Below, in pieces: positions 11,595 to 48,100 of a stretch of 55,405 nucleotides of DNA; the first letter of the stretch is position 1, and each line of letters starts with the position of its first letter. Below the pieces are notes generated by a model. It saw only the letters and a list, made by a program, of their open reading frames with translations. It did not search any database and was not told the origin of the DNA. Both the position numbers and the translations under genes were made by a program. The stretch is taken from contig JACOXY010000013.1 in the NCBI GenBank assembly GCA_016182095.1, positions 1-55,405 on the forward strand. The letters are read 5' to 3'. This stretch comes from Candidatus Liptonbacteria bacterium (lineage in GTDB: Bacteria > Patescibacteriota > Minisyncoccia > UBA6257 > JACOXY01).

Positions 11595-12287
11595 TTATTC
11601 TTTCTTTGCCGCAGGGGCGGTAATGGCTGGCGTCTCGCCCTCTGTAGTCTTTGACGCTTCGCGTTTTGCTTTTTCTTCTTCAGTCTCAACTTTTACTTCG
11701 TCAATCGTTGCGGGCGCCGCCATTGCCGCTTCTTCTTCCTCGGTCACCTTAGCGTTAATGCTCGCGATAACCGTTTCCTGGTCGGCCAAAAATTCAACCC
11801 CTTTGATTGGAGCGAGGTCTCTTACATAAAAACTTGAGCCAATGTCCACGAGCCCCGCCATGTCAACTTCCAATTTGTGGGGCAGGTCGCCAGGAAGCGC
11901 CTCAACCTCAAGTTCGTGCATCGCTTTTACCAAGATACCATTTTTCTCTTTAACGCCAGGGGCAATACCAATAAATTCCAAAGGAACCCTAGTTTTAATT
12001 TTCTCGTCCATGCGAACCTGGTAAAAATCGACGTGCGTCACGGTATCCCGCACCGGATCGCGATCAATATCATATATCAAAACCGGCCTTTTATCGCCGT
12101 CAATATTTACAGTTAATACGGTGCTCTCTCCGGCCTCCTTAAGAGCTTTGGAAAATTCTTTAGCGGAAACAGCAAGGTGCGCGTTTTCTATGCCTCGTCC
12201 ATAAAGCTCGGCCGGAATATAGCCCTCCGCCCTAAGACCTAAGAGCGCCTTCCCAAATTTTTCTCTTTTTTTAGCAGATAATTCCAT
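11595..12287 (-). CDS. rplY: 50S ribosomal protein L25/Ctc
   Basis: IPAELYG, HVDFYQV, long Ctc-type C-terminal domain. Confidence 0.95.
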   Translation of the reverse strand: MELSAKKREKFGKALLGLRAEGYIPAELYGRGIENAHLAVSAKEFSKALKEAGESTVLTVNIDGDKRPVLIYDIDRDPVRDTVTHVDFYQVRMDEKIKTRVPLEFIGIAPGVKEKNGILVKAMHELEVEALPGDLPHKLEVDMAGLVDIGSSFYVRDLAPIKGVEFLADQETVIASINAKVTEEEEAAMAAPATIDEVKVETEEEKAKREASKTTEGETPAITAPAAKKE

Positions 12288-12531
12288 CCCTCACGCAAGA
12301 AGGAGCATTATCCGCTTCCTTCCTGTAATTTATCTTTTTATTTACAAAGTTATTTTATAATATTTATGTTCTACTTATCCATCCCTCACCCAAGAAGGAG
12401 TATTGTCCGCCGCTTCTTGTATTATTGTTTAATTTAATATTTAACTGAATTATTACTTATTTTCTAAATTACACATCAGACCATCCTTCACTCCTTCTTG
12501 GGTGAGGGACCACTCCTTCTTGAGTGAGGGA
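12287..12531. mobile_element. Nested pair of TCCCTCAC-type inverted-repeat elements
   Basis: Outer TIR 12287-12305/12513-12531 (18/19); inner perfect 20-bp TIR 12382-12401/12490-12509. Confidence 0.75.
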
Positions 12532-38553: not shown

Positions 38554-40284
38554 TTATTGTCCCGCCAAAAGGGTAATGCTAAAAACCGATTCATCTTTTC
38601 TGACGTTGAGTGACCCACCCGAATCTTGGCGCGCCCAGACTTCAATATAATCATTCGCCGCAAGCCTTAATCGGGAGCACTCATGCAAAATAGTGGGCTC
38701 CTGGCCAGACGATACTGAATTTATCTGCGTCGTAGTTGCCGATCCGCCGTTAATATAAAATATAATTCGGCGCGCGTCGGTACTATTCGTGGCAAAACTA
38801 ACATTAGCGCAGACAAGATAGAGCCCCCCCGCGGGAATGGTGAAACGACTATTATTGGTAACGCTATCATGTAACCCGCCAAAGTCTTCGGTTTCGGTAT
38901 CCCAAGTAAGCGCGGTCCAGGTAGCGTTCGTTACTGATTGGTTGGAGCTTTTTTTAACTTCTGCCGTTCTTTGGGCTGCAGCGGATGTCGCCTGCCAGCT
39001 CGCGTTCCCACTCGCGTCAGAAGTTAAAACATAGCCGTTAGAAGCGCCGGTAGGAAGTTTGAACCCATTCACCGTTGCCGTTCCAAACACCTGTAACAAA
39101 GAAGACGGGGTTGTAGTTCCGATACCGACATTACCATTTTCATCAATCCTTATTCTGCTTGCCAAACCACTGCCATCTATTTTGGTGGCAAAATCAAGCG
39201 ATCCTCCCCAATTACCATTGGTAACCCCTTCAGTAAACGATCTTATGTTGGCTATTCTTACTCCATTAGTTCCCAATATGTTAGCCGCGGCGCTAAATGC
39301 AACGTCGGCCTGAATCACTCCGTCTCCTCCGGCCGCGTTTCCTGTAACTTCCAATACCACATTGCTATTGCTATTTCCGTAAACATTCAATTTCGTGTTA
39401 ATGACATTAGGATCAATATTTAAAGTTCCAATACCAACTTTTCCGGTATTATAATAAATATTATTGCCATTCGCCCCCCACTGGTCCCCCAGATTCCTCC
39501 AGGAACCGCTTGCATATTCCCTGAAAACGCTGCTTGCGGTGTTGTAATAAATTGACCCGTTTTGTCCTTCAACGGGATCCGCGGATAATTGCCCAACATT
39601 TAAAAGATTAGATATGTTGATATTTTTCCAGCGTGAAGGAGAAGAGAGACCGACGCTATAAATATTATCCTGTCCCGGGATTATGTCCGAATCAAAAACT
39701 GCCGCGGAGACGCGTGCTATAGTTGTCCCAAAAGATTTTGAAAAGGCGTACTTTGGATTATCCGAGTTAAAAGACAGCGTAAAATCAACCTGAACGGCAT
39801 TCTTGGCCAGCGAATTGTAAATGCGGCGGAAAACAAGCGAGCCCGCATCAACAGTAACATTTTCATTGGTAAGCCGGTTCGTTGTGGTGGATATAGTATA
39901 AATGCCAGAGCCAGGCGGCGGGGCCTCGACTGTTGTGCCTTCATCCATCCAAATAGCAGTGCCGGAAGCGTAAAAAGCCACATAGTCGCGGTTAGAATCT
40001 TTATGCCTAATAACAAGCACCGCAATCGGGGTATTGGTCGCTATATCTATAAGACTTGAATCTCTTACCTCTCTTTGGATCATTTGCAAAACAAACCTTC
40101 CTTGTTCGGAAACCTCCCTCGCGGAAGTGCCGCTATTTTGAATTCTTAAAATGGCAAACAGAATGCCGACAATGGAGCCGATTACAATGGCAAAAATGGC
40201 CACATATAAAATCATCTCTAGAAGGGTGGCGCCTTTTTGTTTCTGCGAAATACTTGGAATCTGATATCCGGCATCTGGCATCAT
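38554..40284 (-). CDS. Type IV pilin-like protein fused to beta-rich fibre repeats and a C1q/TNF-like C-terminal domain
   Basis: KG/ATLLEMILYVAI prepilin motif; GKVGIGT and GNVGIGTTTP repeats; RFTIPAGGLYLV; start at ATG 40284. Confidence 0.8.
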   Translation of the reverse strand: MMPDAGYQIPSISQKQKGATLLEMILYVAIFAIVIGSIVGILFAILRIQNSGTSAREVSEQGRFVLQMIQREVRDSSLIDIATNTPIAVLVIRHKDSNRDYVAFYASGTAIWMDEGTTVEAPPPGSGIYTISTTTNRLTNENVTVDAGSLVFRRIYNSLAKNAVQVDFTLSFNSDNPKYAFSKSFGTTIARVSAAVFDSDIIPGQDNIYSVGLSSPSRWKNINISNLLNVGQLSADPVEGQNGSIYYNTASSVFREYASGSWRNLGDQWGANGNNIYYNTGKVGIGTLNIDPNVINTKLNVYGNSNSNVVLEVTGNAAGGDGVIQADVAFSAAANILGTNGVRIANIRSFTEGVTNGNWGGSLDFATKIDGSGLASRIRIDENGNVGIGTTTPSSLLQVFGTATVNGFKLPTGASNGYVLTSDASGNASWQATSAAAQRTAEVKKSSNQSVTNATWTALTWDTETEDFGGLHDSVTNNSRFTIPAGGLYLVCANVSFATNSTDARRIIFYINGGSATTTQINSVSSGQEPTILHECSRLRLAANDYIEVWARQDSGGSLNVRKDESVFSITLLAGQ

Positions 40285-40404
40285 AGATTTATTATAACAC
40301 AAACTAAACAAAATCATTGCCAAATGTGGAAAAATGAGGTAAATTATGTAAAACTAATTACAGATGGTCCCATCGTCTAACGGCTAGGACATGCCCCTTT
40401 TTCA

Positions 40405-40546
40405 TCCCTCACTCAAACTGGATTAGGCGCGGCACCCATCGACACGGCGCCATCGTCTAACGGCTAGGACATCGCCCTTTCACGGCGGAAATACGGGTTC
40501 GATTCCCGTTGGCGCTACTCAATAATAATCCAGCTTGAGTGAGGGA
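40405..40546. mobile_element. TCCCTCAC-type inverted-repeat element enclosing tRNA-Glu
   Basis: tccctcactcaaactggatta / taatccagcttgagtgaggga (20/21). Confidence 0.75.
40446..40517 (+). tRNA. tRNA-Glu(UUC)
   Basis: Cloverleaf; TCGCC-CTTTCAC-GGCGG; GGTTCGATTCCCG. Confidence 0.95.
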
Positions 40547-40664
40547 CAAGCGGCAAAATAGGGCTACACAAAGTAAAGCCGGCCAAATTCATCTTGGCTA
40601 GTTTTACTTTACTTTTTATTTTATCCACAATGGCAAGACCTGCGCTGTGTTATAATGAAAGCAT

Positions 40665-41279
40665 ATGAAATACTTTTTATTGTTTGTCGTTTTCGCAGCC
40701 GCGGCTTTTGGAGGAGTCTGGGCATATAATAATTTCAGTGATGATTCTCTGGCAACCCCAGGAGCTCCAGCGCCAGGGACACCCCCCACAGCACCCACAA
40801 CGCCCACAACGCCACCGGGCGGGGGAACTCAAATTGCCGCCACGGGTTGTTACAATTATGGCACAAAACTAGACGCGCCTGTTAAGTGCCCCTATAACAC
40901 GCCCTCATGCACCTCTGCTGGTGGCTGTGTGACACAGTGCGGATCCTGCTCATATAATATCTGTGAAGCGCCAAGCGGCGGCCCGCTTAAGAAATGGTTC
41001 CCAACTCCCTGCGACACCACGCCAAGCCCATTCTTTGGACACATAAAATCAGATTCGGAATTCCAGAGTTGTCTTGCGAGCACCTTTGGACAGCCAGCCG
41101 TGGACGACTGGGTTCTTGGGAAAATTGTAGTATGGCCGGCAGACGCTCTCACCCCAAAGGATAATCTAATCACCAAGGATTTTACTACATGTTACGACGG
41201 ATACTATAAGCGATTTTGCGCGAAATTGAGCCCGCAAGTGAGGACGAGTACATATAAGAGCTTGTGCGATAAGTATTAA
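40665..41279 (+). CDS. Secreted Cys-rich protein with a Pro/Thr linker
   Basis: Signal peptide, PGTPPTAPTTPTTPP, many cysteines. Confidence 0.75.
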   Translation: MKYFLLFVVFAAAAFGGVWAYNNFSDDSLATPGAPAPGTPPTAPTTPTTPPGGGTQIAATGCYNYGTKLDAPVKCPYNTPSCTSAGGCVTQCGSCSYNICEAPSGGPLKKWFPTPCDTTPSPFFGHIKSDSEFQSCLASTFGQPAVDDWVLGKIVVWPADALTPKDNLITKDFTTCYDGYYKRFCAKLSPQVRTSTYKSLCDKY

Positions 41280-42292: not shown

Positions 42293-43123
42293 TTAACAGG
42301 CCGTCTTTTGCAATTTCATGAAAGTAGCCGCCGCATTATGGAAAAAGGCGAGCGCTTTCTTGGGACTATACGTGTCATTACCATACCCGACACCCAATTT
42401 GTTTCGGAGTCCCGATTCGGCATCAATAGAAAAATCATTACTGCCAAGCCACCCGGAAATTTCTTCCACCAAACGCGCCACATTGAATTGGTTGAACCCG
42501 CCGGCAAAGCCAATGGCTAAATCATTGTGTTCTTGAATTCTCTCCGCCAAGCTCACGCACGAAGCAGGAACAAGCTCTTCACCGCGCCCGCCGGACGGAT
42601 CAATAAGCACATAATCAATGCAATTGTTGTAGCTCTTAAGGCCAAAGACAATAGCCCCATGGCTCATAGTTTCAAGAGCCGTCCGGTGAAGCTGCATTAT
42701 GATTTGAAGCTCCGGGTATCGGATCCTGATTTTCTCCATCATCCCATAGTGAAGATTGCCAAACTGCATATTTAACTGCAGCCCACGACAGATATTATCC
42801 GCGTACATGTTTTCCATATCAAAAATCTTGCACACAGAATCATACAATGCGGGATATTCTCGGGTAGTGAAGTGAACAGCGGTGAAAATATCGTCTCTGG
42901 TAGCCAGTGCCGCCCGAAAAATTTCGGGAATGTCCGTCACAACCGGGTTCCGCTTGCTTTCGGTTTTTTCTCCGCGTAGGGTACGCGTAGTAACCTGCAC
43001 GCCCACCTGTCCGCGATGCGATATCGGAAAGTTATTCAAAACATAGTGAATGCTCGCCGAAGCGGAGATCGCCTCTTCTATATTTTTCACGCCAACAATG
43101 CCGATATATGGGATCTTGCTCAT
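42293..43123 (-). CDS. TrpF/PRAI-like TIM-barrel hypothetical protein
   Basis: IGIVG, LQLN, LIDPSGGRG, GFAGG, SIDAESGLR. Confidence 0.65.
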   Translation of the reverse strand: MSKIPYIGIVGVKNIEEAISASASIHYVLNNFPISHRGQVGVQVTTRTLRGEKTESKRNPVVTDIPEIFRAALATRDDIFTAVHFTTREYPALYDSVCKIFDMENMYADNICRGLQLNMQFGNLHYGMMEKIRIRYPELQIIMQLHRTALETMSHGAIVFGLKSYNNCIDYVLIDPSGGRGEELVPASCVSLAERIQEHNDLAIGFAGGFNQFNVARLVEEISGWLGSNDFSIDAESGLRNKLGVGYGNDTYSPKKALAFFHNAAATFMKLQKTAC

Positions 43124-43235
43124 TGCCGCCCACTTTTTCTCAAAGAAAATTACTGAAACCATTCTAAAATAACTTTTTTTCTTTGTCAATTATTTTTGAT
43201 TGAAAAAAGCCGCAAAATCATTTAGTATTTGCCTT

Positions 43236-46767: not shown

Positions 46768-47499
46768 ATGACGCTAATATTATTGCTACTGGGTATTCTC
46801 CCTGGCTTTGTCTGGCTCCTCTTCTATCTTGAGGAAGACACAGACCACGAGCCAATGCGCGAAGTTTTTTTCGCCTTTCTTATCGGTTCGGCAATTACGA
46901 TCATTGTCCTTTTTACCGAACAGCTCTACGCCGCGCTTGGCAACATTATTGGGATAGCGCCTTATTCCTTTATATCTTTTCTGGGGCTCTCTTCAATAGA
47001 AGAATTTTTTAAATTCGCCGCCGCCTATCTGGTGGTAAGCAAGAGCAGGTATTTTGATATACCGGTTGACGCAATGATTTATATGGTTGTGGTGGCTCTG
47101 GGCTTTGCGACACTTGAAAACATTTTCGCGGTAAGCGGAGAGTTCAAAAACGCAGCCGCCCTAAGTTCCGCGGCCGAAACTGCCTCGCTCCGTTTTGTTG
47201 GCGCGACCCTGCTTCACACTCTTGCCTCCGCGACTGTGGGATATTACTGGGCCAAGGCGATGACCCACGGCTCTTGGGTTAAAAATTTAGTCACAGGGCT
47301 ATCTCTCGCGACCGGACTCCACACTGTCTTTAATTATCTCGTATCCGTTGAGGGCGTATCCATAATTTATCCCGTGATACTGCTCACCGTAGCAGGATTC
47401 TTTGTCCTAAACGACTTTGATAAACTAAAGCATCCTGAGAAACTGGGGGTTGCGCCATTCTTCAAAAAAAGAGTTGGCGCTCAAGCTGATATGGTATAA
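46768..47499 (+). CDS. PrsW-family intramembrane protease
   Basis: EEFFK, GFATLEN, LLH, LHTVFN. Confidence 0.9.
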   Translation: MTLILLLLGILPGFVWLLFYLEEDTDHEPMREVFFAFLIGSAITIIVLFTEQLYAALGNIIGIAPYSFISFLGLSSIEEFFKFAAAYLVVSKSRYFDIPVDAMIYMVVVALGFATLENIFAVSGEFKNAAALSSAAETASLRFVGATLLHTLASATVGYYWAKAMTHGSWVKNLVTGLSLATGLHTVFNYLVSVEGVSIIYPVILLTVAGFFVLNDFDKLKHPEKLGVAPFFKKRVGAQADMV

Positions 47500-47631
47500 T
47501 CCCTCACTCTTCACGCATCAAAATGAAGATTGTGGATATTCTCTTATTGATATGGCAAGGTTGTGTTATAATGAAAATAATTAATAATCGCTTTTTGTCG
47601 CAAAGCGACTAATGAGTGAAGAGTGAGGGAT
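47499..47631. mobile_element. TCCCTCAC-type inverted-repeat element upstream of hsp20
   Basis: atccctcactcttcac / gtgaagagtgagggat (16/16); internal TGtTATAAT. Confidence 0.7.
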
Positions 47632-48100
47632 GGACGATGATACAAAAAATTATTTAAACGAGCTGTCACAAGAAACCGGCGAAGAGAATATAGAATTAGC
47701 GAGGTCTGGCGGCGCTGTCACAAACTCCAAGAAATCAGCCGAAAAAAATCTTGCCCTCTCGAGTGAAATGGAGGGGCAATTAACAATTGATGTCTATCAG
47801 ACAAGTTCGCATATTATAGTTGAATCAACTATCGCCGGAGTTAATCCGGACGATTTGGATATTGAAATTACCCCGGAATCTGTAACTATAAGGGGGCAAA
47901 GGGAAAAAGAGGAGCGCGTTAAGGAAGACGATTACATTTATCAAGAGTGTTACTGGGGAAGATTTTCACGATCGGTTATTCTGCCGCAGGAAGTTGACCC
48001 GGATAAATCAGAGGCAACGCTCAAAAATGGCGTCTTAAAAATAAAGCTTCCAAAAATCAATCGCGAAAAAAGCAAAAAACTGAAAGTGAATTTCGTGTAA
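47630..48100 (+). CDS. Hsp20/alpha-crystallin small heat-shock protein
   Basis: IDVYQT, ECYWGRFSRSVILP, ATLKNGVLKI. Confidence 0.93.
   Translation: MDDDTKNYLNELSQETGEENIELARSGGAVTNSKKSAEKNLALSSEMEGQLTIDVYQTSSHIIVESTIAGVNPDDLDIEITPESVTIRGQREKEERVKEDDYIYQECYWGRFSRSVILPQEVDPDKSEATLKNGVLKIKLPKINREKSKKLKVNFV

Follow-up and report, generated by a model that had tools for sequence, protein, structure and literature searches.

A short inverted-repeat cassette probably interrupts a resident tRNA-Glu gene and supplies its replacement in a Candidatus Liptonbacteria bacterium

Why should a complete tRNA gene lie inside a broken copy of the same tRNA gene? This question is raised by a 55,405-nucleotide stretch of DNA from a Candidatus Liptonbacteria bacterium (contig JACOXY010000013.1; the whole stretch is hereafter called the window), in which an intact tRNA-Glu(UUC), framed by terminal inverted repeats, stands between the two halves of a second tRNA-Glu. 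The window is contig C16 of an 893-kb genome in 23 contigs, labelled G000 and 97.5% complete; G and L numbers are our labels for genomes and loci, and coordinates given without a contig prefix are window positions. Our analysis makes it probable that the segment at 40405-40546 is a 142-bp non-autonomous, hairpin-ended mobile cassette, belonging to a family of elements whose ends carry the core TCCCTCAC, and that it breaks the resident gene and supplies a replacement in the form of its tRNA-Glu(UUC) cargo.

The locus, which lies entirely on the forward strand, reads as one gene within another. The outer, resident tRNA-Glu is represented at 40366..40404 by its 5' part, recognized by its identity to the inner tRNA and to a tRNA-Glu of the related genome G001, and comprising the 5' strand of the acceptor stem, the D arm, the 5' strand of the anticodon stem, and the anticodon loop through C36-A37. 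There follow the left terminal inverted repeat (40405..40425), which has the family core TCCCTCAC at its start, a cassette leader (40426..40445), the intact inner tRNA-Glu(UUC) (40446..40518), a cassette trailer (40519..40525), and the right terminal inverted repeat (40526..40546), the leader and trailer being delimited by direct reading and the repeats by an inverted-repeat search. The outer gene then resumes as a 3' remnant (40547..40567), identified by its alignment to the G001 tRNA-Glu and by its pairing with the outer 5' part. The two arms are 21 nt long and 100 nt apart, with 20 of 21 positions complementary, and with up to 3 mismatches allowed the window contains the 21-nt repeat twice, against 0.00 occurrences expected from a dinucleotide-preserving shuffle. 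The inner gene is called both by ARAGORN and by Rfam (RF00005, 62.7 bits, E 6.9e-13, gathering score 29), and its G1-U72 acceptor end is also found in tRNA-Glu genes of related genomes. It is the sole gene inside the cassette, into which no open reading frame (ORF) fits, and RF00005 was the only significant family in an Rfam search of the locus with permissive filters, which returned no intron family.

The outer 5' part and the inner gene share a 31-nt direct repeat of 94% identity (29/31; 40370-40400 against 40450-40480) with a 23-nt identical core, and their acceptor and anticodon stems differ, each gene having its own pairing partners. The dinucleotide CA flanks the cassette at 40403-40404 and 40547-40548, and both copies correspond to C36-A37 of the anticodon loop when aligned to the G001 tRNA-Glu. 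A first-pass annotation, made from the letters of the window alone, had described an outer 5' half with a shared D-arm region, different stems in the two genes, a 21-bp pair of terminal repeats, a complete inner tRNA-Glu(UUC), and CA at both ends, and all of these were borne out. Contigs of four DNA runs from one groundwater study, in which all the sampled words are present, run through 40273-41000 or beyond without a single difference or alternative joint; these contigs are short-read, and the same study may be the source of the window assembly. In the leader (40426..40445) there is also, by eye, a short stretch that, apart from a 5-nt insert, resembles nucleotides 1-12 of the inner tRNA-Glu, and which may be the relic of an older nesting layer.

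Which of the two genes is the resident can be read from relatives, a comparison that the first-pass annotation had suggested. Among 11 related loci with a tRNA-Glu, the acceptor 5' strand of the outer copy occurs only in G001, a genome of the same family as G000, and the acceptor strand of the inner gene is absent from the tRNA-Glu of all 11. In G001, an intact, uninterrupted tRNA-Glu adjoins the genes for Fpg (56% identity, 289 aa) and TsaD (56-61%), and this order of tRNA-Glu, Fpg, and TsaD is shared by the window, which interposes ORFs at 40665-41279 and 42293-43189. The outer 5' part is identical to the syntenic G001 gene at 31/35 positions, including the whole acceptor strand, and has two extra T in its T run. 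Since the intact syntenic gene of G001 shares the acceptor stem of the outer copy, it is the outer copy that is resident and the cassette that was inserted. The Fpg-TsaD tRNA-Glu of G001 is the empty site, that is, the element-free allele looked for in homing elements.

The tail beyond the cassette is the other half of that resident. It aligns at 40547-40563 to positions 36-52 of the G001 tRNA-Glu with 14/16 bases and 1 gap, a score reached by 17/5000 shuffles, in agreement with the first-pass view of this segment as a tRNA 3' half; the match is significant only against the G001 orthologue, as 377/5000 shuffles do as well against the inner tRNA alone. The tail contains the end of the loop, the 3' strand of the anticodon stem, the variable loop, and the first 4 nt of the T stem (AGGG), followed, after an 18-nt deletion, by the two terminal acceptor nucleotides, the discriminator, and a single base of the trailer. 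It had been proposed to pair with both the anticodon and the acceptor strands of the outer 5' part. The first half of this proposal stands, with 4/5 positions paired to the 5' strand of the outer anticodon stem, and the second does not, AGGG being T stem rather than acceptor strand. Two compensatory pair changes in the anticodon stem, relative to G001, are present in the outer 5' part and the tail alike, and because of them the two pieces can be taken as halves of one formerly working gene. The CA on both sides of the cassette is possibly a 2-bp target duplication. A second intact tRNA-Glu(UUC) is found on contig C10 of G000 (62.6 bits), and the inner gene is therefore a replacement but not the sole Glu(UUC) gene. 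In G001 itself (L087, contig C23, ~600-620), 17 nt of the T-loop/acceptor 3' end stand a second time, just after GTGAG, ~150 nt downstream of the intact tRNA-Glu, so that even the 'empty' relative may carry an older scar.

The ends of the cassette belong to a family distributed over the genome. The 10-mer TCCCTCACTC, at up to 1 mismatch, occurs 11 times in the window versus 1.7 expected, and the 8-nt core TCCCTCAC has 93 sites in the 893-kb genome. A search for paired ends (core TCCC[TC]CAC, arms of at least 10 nt) recovered 36 elements of up to 300 bp in G000, mostly 114-142 bp long and AT-rich, including two of 289 bp; about 30 paired elements are non-coding and roughly 120 bp, and no longer element with TCCCTCAC ends was found in the G000 genome. 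Common to the family are the outer 8-12 nt only. The inner part of the repeat differs by subfamily yet stays complementary, and beyond the shared 8-12 nt the 21-nt repeat of the Glu cassette is private to that copy. The family is also present in 6/40 related genomes searched.

The first-pass annotation had assigned the repeats to a family seen at rplY (ORF 11595-12287) and hsp20 (ORF 47630-48100), and family copies indeed abut both ORFs, with only the first 8-12 nt of the repeat in common. These cargo-less members, at 12287-12531 and 47500-47630, fill their intergenic gaps exactly: the first base of the former completes the rplY start codon, and the latter lies between the stop codon of a PrsW-like gene (which ends at 47499) and the hsp20 start at 47630. 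Genome-wide, the terminal base forms an ATG in 20/30 paired elements, and 14/30 stand directly after a stop codon; cargo-less elements may thus supply expression signals. Bare hairpins of 30-36 nt with the same core and no cargo occur at C3:37965-37994 and C1:14195-14228 of G000. Given that such minimal hairpins exist, the family spans bare hairpins, filler, tRNA cargo, and a nuclease gene. In two cases of an element within an element in G000, inspection by eye suggests a target duplication of 3-4 nt.

A DNA search of 40 relatives with the locus returned only tRNA-Glu genes and no homologous cassette, and the neighbouring 204-aa protein, used as a query in metagenome contigs, yielded no close relatives. 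Nesting of like in like nevertheless recurs with other isotypes. A flank-blind pattern, defined by two 8-nt cores and a T loop only, with the flanks unspecified, matched 8/401 genomes of the same order (11 loci), whereas the reversed-pattern control matched 0. Applied to one genome each of 185,579 species, it found 29 stretches, nearly all labelled Patescibacteria or Parcubacteria-type; some loci of this census are in bins labelled, as deposited, as other phyla. An ARAGORN tRNA is held by 29/30 distinct cassettes from the scan. The Glu cassette, one gap of which is 83 nt, was missed by the pattern; counting it as well gives 30 tRNA-bearing cassettes with 7 Ala, 6 Pro, 6 Val, 4 Thr, and one each of Trp, His, Ser, Asn, Arg, Lys, and Glu as cargo.

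When 45 nt upstream and 60 nt downstream of each cassette were compared with the inner tRNAs, the flanks best matched the isotype of the cargo itself in 24/30 cases (1 tie) and had the same anticodon in 21/30, always in sense orientation (sense scores 25-138 versus antisense 18-33). Other TCCCTCAC elements therefore do carry cargo homologous to their insertion site, a point on which the first-pass annotation had asked for a check, and its central suggestion, that of a mini-element which disrupts a gene and carries a replacement, gains support from the empty site, the compensatory changes, and the recurrence of the cassettes. By eye, cognate fragments touch at least one repeat arm in all inspected cassettes but L037. 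This locus (a tRNA-His in a cyanobacterial metagenome-assembled genome, with a repeat of only 8-9 nt and no flanking fragments) was rejected as a family member, as was L061 (GC-rich, without a tRNA, from a bin outside the candidate phyla radiation, CPR), both being probably chance matches. The arms of the 30 cassettes are complementary over 8-21 nt without mismatch while their positions 9-14 hold 23 different hexamers; it is therefore the hairpin that is conserved, not the sequence.

Nesting is not confined to one locus or to one family of ends within G000. On C10, a TCCCTCAC pair encloses a tRNA-Thr(UGU) inside another tRNA that retains its D arm, T arm, and acceptor. A flank scan of the genome flagged 16/42 tRNAs, and each of the six that were inspected (Val-CAC, Val-UAC, Arg-GCG, Pro-CGG, Asn, and Gly-CCC) is accompanied by tRNA fragments and other inverted-repeat families. 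At C1:2450-2990, a tRNA-Val(CAC) cassette has the variant core TCCCCCAC, and behind it the series of trailer, repeat arm, and tRNA 3' fragment comes at least 3 times in a row, once with GTGAGGGA as its end; we read this arrangement as a many-layered doll whose 5' layers are mostly lost. Cognate fragments flank Val(UAC) at C5:6490-6562, Pro(CGG) at C18:91167-91238, Asn at C23:43771-43843, and Arg(GCG) at C7:17203-17275. The ends around these four tRNAs belong to other families, for example ones containing CCCCGTTAGAT, and similar ends bracket other GIY-YIG paralogues in related genomes. In the tRNA array of C10 (104750-104960, reverse strand), a tRNA-Leu(UAA) is followed by a GC-rich insert of ~110 nt and then by another copy of its own T arm and acceptor 3' end.

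The junctions differ from one isotype to another. The insertion position is constant within an isotype across genera, and the outer genes are never complete in the cassettes compared: Val and Ala cassettes stand after position 35, where 5 nt have been lost; with Pro cassettes the anticodon stem is short of 4 nt on its 5' strand; about 11 nt are gone in some Thr cassettes; and one Lys cassette lies in the T arm. L056 has three nested levels. Its two inner cassettes agree completely, in their ends and tRNA as well as in leader and trailer, and both are interrupted at one and the same position, with loss of the same 5 nt. Identical units at the same site mean that the cassette is a discrete unit and inserts anew into the copy of its cargo that is still intact. 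More than one level is also present in L058 and L054. Outer relics can contain further insertions. GC-rich palindromes of 16-40 nt occur in the outer T loop, right after GGTTC, in L025, L029, L030, L032, L033, L054, and L057, and the outer relic of L024 has a long insert in its D loop. These palindromes appear to be a second kind of loop-seeking hairpin, and their presence in outer relics is expected for dead DNA.

What might move such a cassette is suggested by the two family members of 289 bp, both of which carry a small GIY-YIG gene. The copy on C18 is intact and encodes 86 aa (C18:50219-50479, reverse strand), with Pfam PF01541 over residues 1-67 (49.3 bits; cut-off 22.6), and its nearest solved relatives are UPF0213 proteins (1zg2, E 8.5e-4). 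The other, at C2:11563-11851, has an in-frame TAA early in the gene and is probably inactive. Five cassette-bearing genomes have 1-10 such GIY-YIG genes each. The closest homologues (66-71% identity; G114, G132, and G076) have the same 20-nt TCCCTCAC-type end, of which only the upstream one is on the contig for the two G076 copies, whereas other GIY-YIG paralogues, in those genomes and in G000, have other ends. This 20-nt end type occurs in 5/8 cassette genomes versus 30/401 genomes of the order, which is only a hint of a link between nuclease and cassettes, as related genomes are not independent. The GIY-YIG nuclease is the leading candidate for the enzyme that makes the breaks, a role to which we give somewhat less than even chances, and it might mobilize the family in trans with a likelihood that we also place a little short of one half. 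The variability of the scars argues for break and repair over a precise transposase.

Taken together, these observations suggest a probable history of the locus. The cassette inserted in sense at C36-A37, in the anticodon loop of the resident tRNA-Glu of the Fpg-TsaD locus, turning the resident into a pseudogene that later lost 18 nt of its T arm. The cargo would have no promoter of its own (cassette leaders are 11-41 nt long), and its transcription would start from the resident promoter and stop at the resident terminator. A promoter-like site at 40317..40345 on the forward strand (TTGCCA, a 17-nt spacer, and TAAATT; 9/12 matches in a consensus scan), ~20 nt upstream of the outer tRNA start, is presumably the promoter of the resident tRNA-Glu, now driving the whole nested unit. 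Similarly, a forward-strand hairpin followed by a T-rich run at 40570..40625, with arms at 40570-40586 and 40594-40610 in the inverted-repeat search and a terminator-like site at 40581-40599, is presumed to be the resident terminator. The cargo tRNA would be cut from the precursor by the normal tRNA-processing enzymes, and we infer that the inner tRNA is expressed. Cassettes would then re-invade whichever cognate tRNA copy is intact, giving rise to Russian-doll genes in which the newest cassette is the working copy. Only a sense insertion in a transcribed tRNA locus would give a working gene, and where tRNAs are single-copy, an insertion would do no harm only if it hit the cognate gene. The cognate site could be found through a preference of the nuclease for the single-stranded anticodon hairpin, through homology-templated repair or copying from a nested allele, or through survivorship alone; that none of 29 family members is an un-nested tRNA cassette speaks for targeting of some kind.

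It is tempting to extend this history into a more general model of a CPR 'break-and-replace' selfish gene. Cassettes would be moved in trans by 86-aa, Ssn-like GIY-YIG single-strand nucleases, would home to the anticodon arm of the cognate tRNA gene, thereby inactivating that gene, and would become indispensable by carrying the working copy, with repeated invasion producing the dolls; at least 8/42 tRNA genes of G000 seem affected. We advance this model tentatively, and consider it open to more doubt than belief.

Several points weigh against our interpretation. The junctions are non-uniform, with CA duplicated here and 4, 5, or ~11 nt missing elsewhere, a pattern more easily explained by insertion through repair, or by scars inherited from a founder, than by a precise transposase. 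The L029 and L039 cassettes are alike at 105/109 positions, and their outer relics at 29/35 and 25/30; as cassettes are only slightly more alike between genomes than the relics are, horizontal spread is not demonstrated. The Glu nesting is known from one example: a Glu-specific TCCCTCAC cassette pattern found 0 other cases of Glu in Glu in metagenome contigs, and among 401 genomes of the order only G000 has a duplicated tRNA-Glu D arm with copies 45-75 nt apart. With a second intact tRNA-Glu(UUC) on C10, selection for rescue by the cassette cargo is not proven. Finally, 3/8 cassette genomes (G188, G344, and G392) have no GIY-YIG-type end at up to 2 mismatches, and GIY-YIG nucleases hydrolyse DNA but are unable alone to join it.

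These last two points would be accommodated if the cassette were mobile through another enzyme, either a Y1 (IS200/RAYT-like) HUH protein or a transposase encoded outside the assembly, and if the GIY-YIG gene were mere cargo. HUH Y1 enzymes move hairpin-ended DNA of the REP/IS200 type via single strands, and they both cut and join. In G000, an intact frame of 244 aa (C18:85094-85825) matches Y1_Tnp at 40.2 bits. However, this gene is not flanked by TCCCTCAC ends, the nearest being a lone end ~1.3 kb away, whereas GIY-YIG genes lie exactly between TCCCTCAC ends in four genomes (in G076, with one end on the contig). Each GIY-YIG paralogue moreover has its own end sequence, as expected of a cognate pair, and the absence of any longer TCCCTCAC-ended element from the genome also speaks against a separate transposase. 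We therefore regard mobilization by another enzyme as an unlikely alternative to the GIY-YIG nuclease.

It is also conceivable, though we consider it rather improbable, that no dedicated insertion machinery is involved. Hairpins like those of the Ssn/NTS systems would shape the recombination of incoming single-stranded DNA, and nesting would be a by-product of repeated homologous or illegitimate recombination between diverged tRNA alleles brought in by transformation. There is a precedent in the single-domain GIY-YIG Ssn nucleases, which, according to the accessible text of PMC11893778, cut single-stranded DNA next to hairpin repeats around important genes and modulate transformation. The two tRNA halves would offer ~35 nt of conserved homology per side, and junction scars that are constant within an isotype are what templated copying would give. 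Simple allelic recombination, however, would replace a tRNA rather than nest one, and the L056 doll looks like repeated insertion of a discrete unit. The same ends also bound ~30 cargo-less elements between genes, and the published SRM consensus is not enriched, with 2 matches versus 1-4 in five shuffled genomes and none at the elements.

Insertion of a mobile cassette at the DNA level also has to be weighed against a design that operates on RNA, in which the cassette would act as an intron, or the outer halves as a split tRNA, a single transcript giving rise to both tRNAs. In the predicted fold of the 201-nt unit (RNA minimum free energy -74.9 kcal/mol, z -4.09; DNA z -3.59), the outer halves are indeed joined atop a 20-bp repeat helix with the inner cloverleaf in the loop, and helices of this kind are used by archaeal split and intron-containing tRNAs, as far as the accessible text of PMC10714607 goes. 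Yet excision would yield no working tRNA, because the outer copy has no T arm here and 4-11 nt of the anticodon arm are gone in other cassettes, and several outer relics have further hairpin insertions in their T or D loop. Neither the RtcB ligase (PF01139) nor the tRNA splicing endonuclease (PF01974) was found in the 97.5%-complete G000, in searches to which control genomes responded, and no intron family was found in Rfam. Splicing of the cassette is unlikely, and an RNA-level design as a whole is highly improbable. Lastly, a local tandem duplication of part of tRNA-Glu with a chance or processing-stem inverted repeat, or an assembly artefact, with no mobile element at all, is largely refuted and has hardly any likelihood left: slippage could produce the direct repeat of the 5' half, and the tail does not match the inner tRNA alone significantly, but the repeat ends are those of a family spread over the genome, the stems of the outer gene and of the inner one differ and have their own partners, the outer copy matches the resident gene of a relative, the same architecture exists for 10 other isotypes, and four per-run assemblies agree.

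The literature searched, with supplementary tables outside the search, describes no bacterial tRNA gene lying inside another. In their accessible parts, PMC10714607 and PMC12455944 mention only CPR rRNA introns, archaeal tRNA introns, and GIY-YIG among transferred genes. If our interpretation holds, the cassettes would represent a strategy of mobile DNA undescribed in the literature searched, namely retention through destroying an essential single-copy gene and supplying its substitute, and thus a natural counterpart of engineered cleave-and-rescue drives. It would also explain the odd tRNA fragments beside CPR tRNA genes, which can mislead tRNA annotation and estimates of completeness, and would assign the very small, Ssn-like GIY-YIG nucleases a specific function in biology. 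With its ~100-150 bp, such a compact and self-targeting DNA cassette might furthermore serve as a tool.

Several known systems share features with the cassette. Bacterial miniature inverted-repeat transposable elements (MITEs), such as the Correia/NEMIS elements of Neisseria, are compared here by description and not by sequence. Short, multicopy, bounded by inverted repeats, and without a transposase, the cassette is a MITE in the descriptive sense: it is 142 bp long, many copies share its ends, and the cargo-less copies are intergenic. In contrast to MITEs, it carries a complete tRNA gene of predicted function and sits in the cognate tRNA gene, its repeats conserve only the outermost 8-12 nt with the rest co-varying to keep the hairpin, its coding partners with the same ends carry a GIY-YIG nuclease rather than a DDE or other known transposase, and cassettes have no uniform target-site duplication. 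P4-type islands and prophages integrate in tRNA genes and restore them; they encode an integrase, and their att sites are duplicates of the tRNA 3' part only. As with these islands, the target is an essential tRNA gene and the element brings sequence that keeps the gene working. The cassette, however, measures ~100-150 bp, has no integrase (no ORF fits into 142 bp), carries a whole tRNA, and leaves the displaced gene as two halves, and the duplicated part is the 5' half plus CA.

Group I introns occur in the anticodon loops of bacterial tRNAs, which is also where the cassette is inserted, but the cassette is too short, has no ribozyme (only a tRNA in Rfam), and is not flanked by intact exons. 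Like a homing element, it has an insertion site that is fixed within an isotype across genomes; it has no ORF and encodes no endonuclease, so that any nuclease must act in trans. Synthetic cleave-and-rescue and home-and-rescue drives are engineered, nuclease-encoding, and eukaryotic. They and the cassette alike disrupt an essential gene and carry a rescue copy, so that the element cannot be lost, whereas the cassette is natural, bacterial, and non-autonomous, and its rescue copy is open to re-invasion, as in L056.

Transposable tRNA introns and split tRNAs of archaea (Fujishima et al. 2009, 2010, as cited in PMC10714607) resemble the cassettes in being, by that account, short insertions in tRNA loops that spread among tRNA genes, with a helix uniting the halves. 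According to the same text, the archaeal inserts are removed from RNA by a splicing endonuclease and a ligase, leaving the host tRNA functional; in our case, neither enzyme was found in G000, the outer gene is no longer functional, and it is the insert that codes for a tRNA. Finally, Ssn nucleases and their SRM repeats, as described in the accessible text of PMC11893778, share with the TCCCTCAC family a single-domain GIY-YIG protein (~90 aa in Ssn, 86 aa here), a gene bracketed by its own repeat, many copies of the repeat, and repeats specific to each paralogue. That text makes no mention of tRNA cargo or nesting for Ssn; the cassette family does not fit the published SRM consensus, and its nuclease activity is predicted from sequence. 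The layout of an Ssn gene between repeats resembles an insertion sequence in the view of its authors (PMC11893778), but there the gene lies between two separate small hairpins, whereas in the family described here a gene, filler, or a tRNA is enclosed in one large hairpin.

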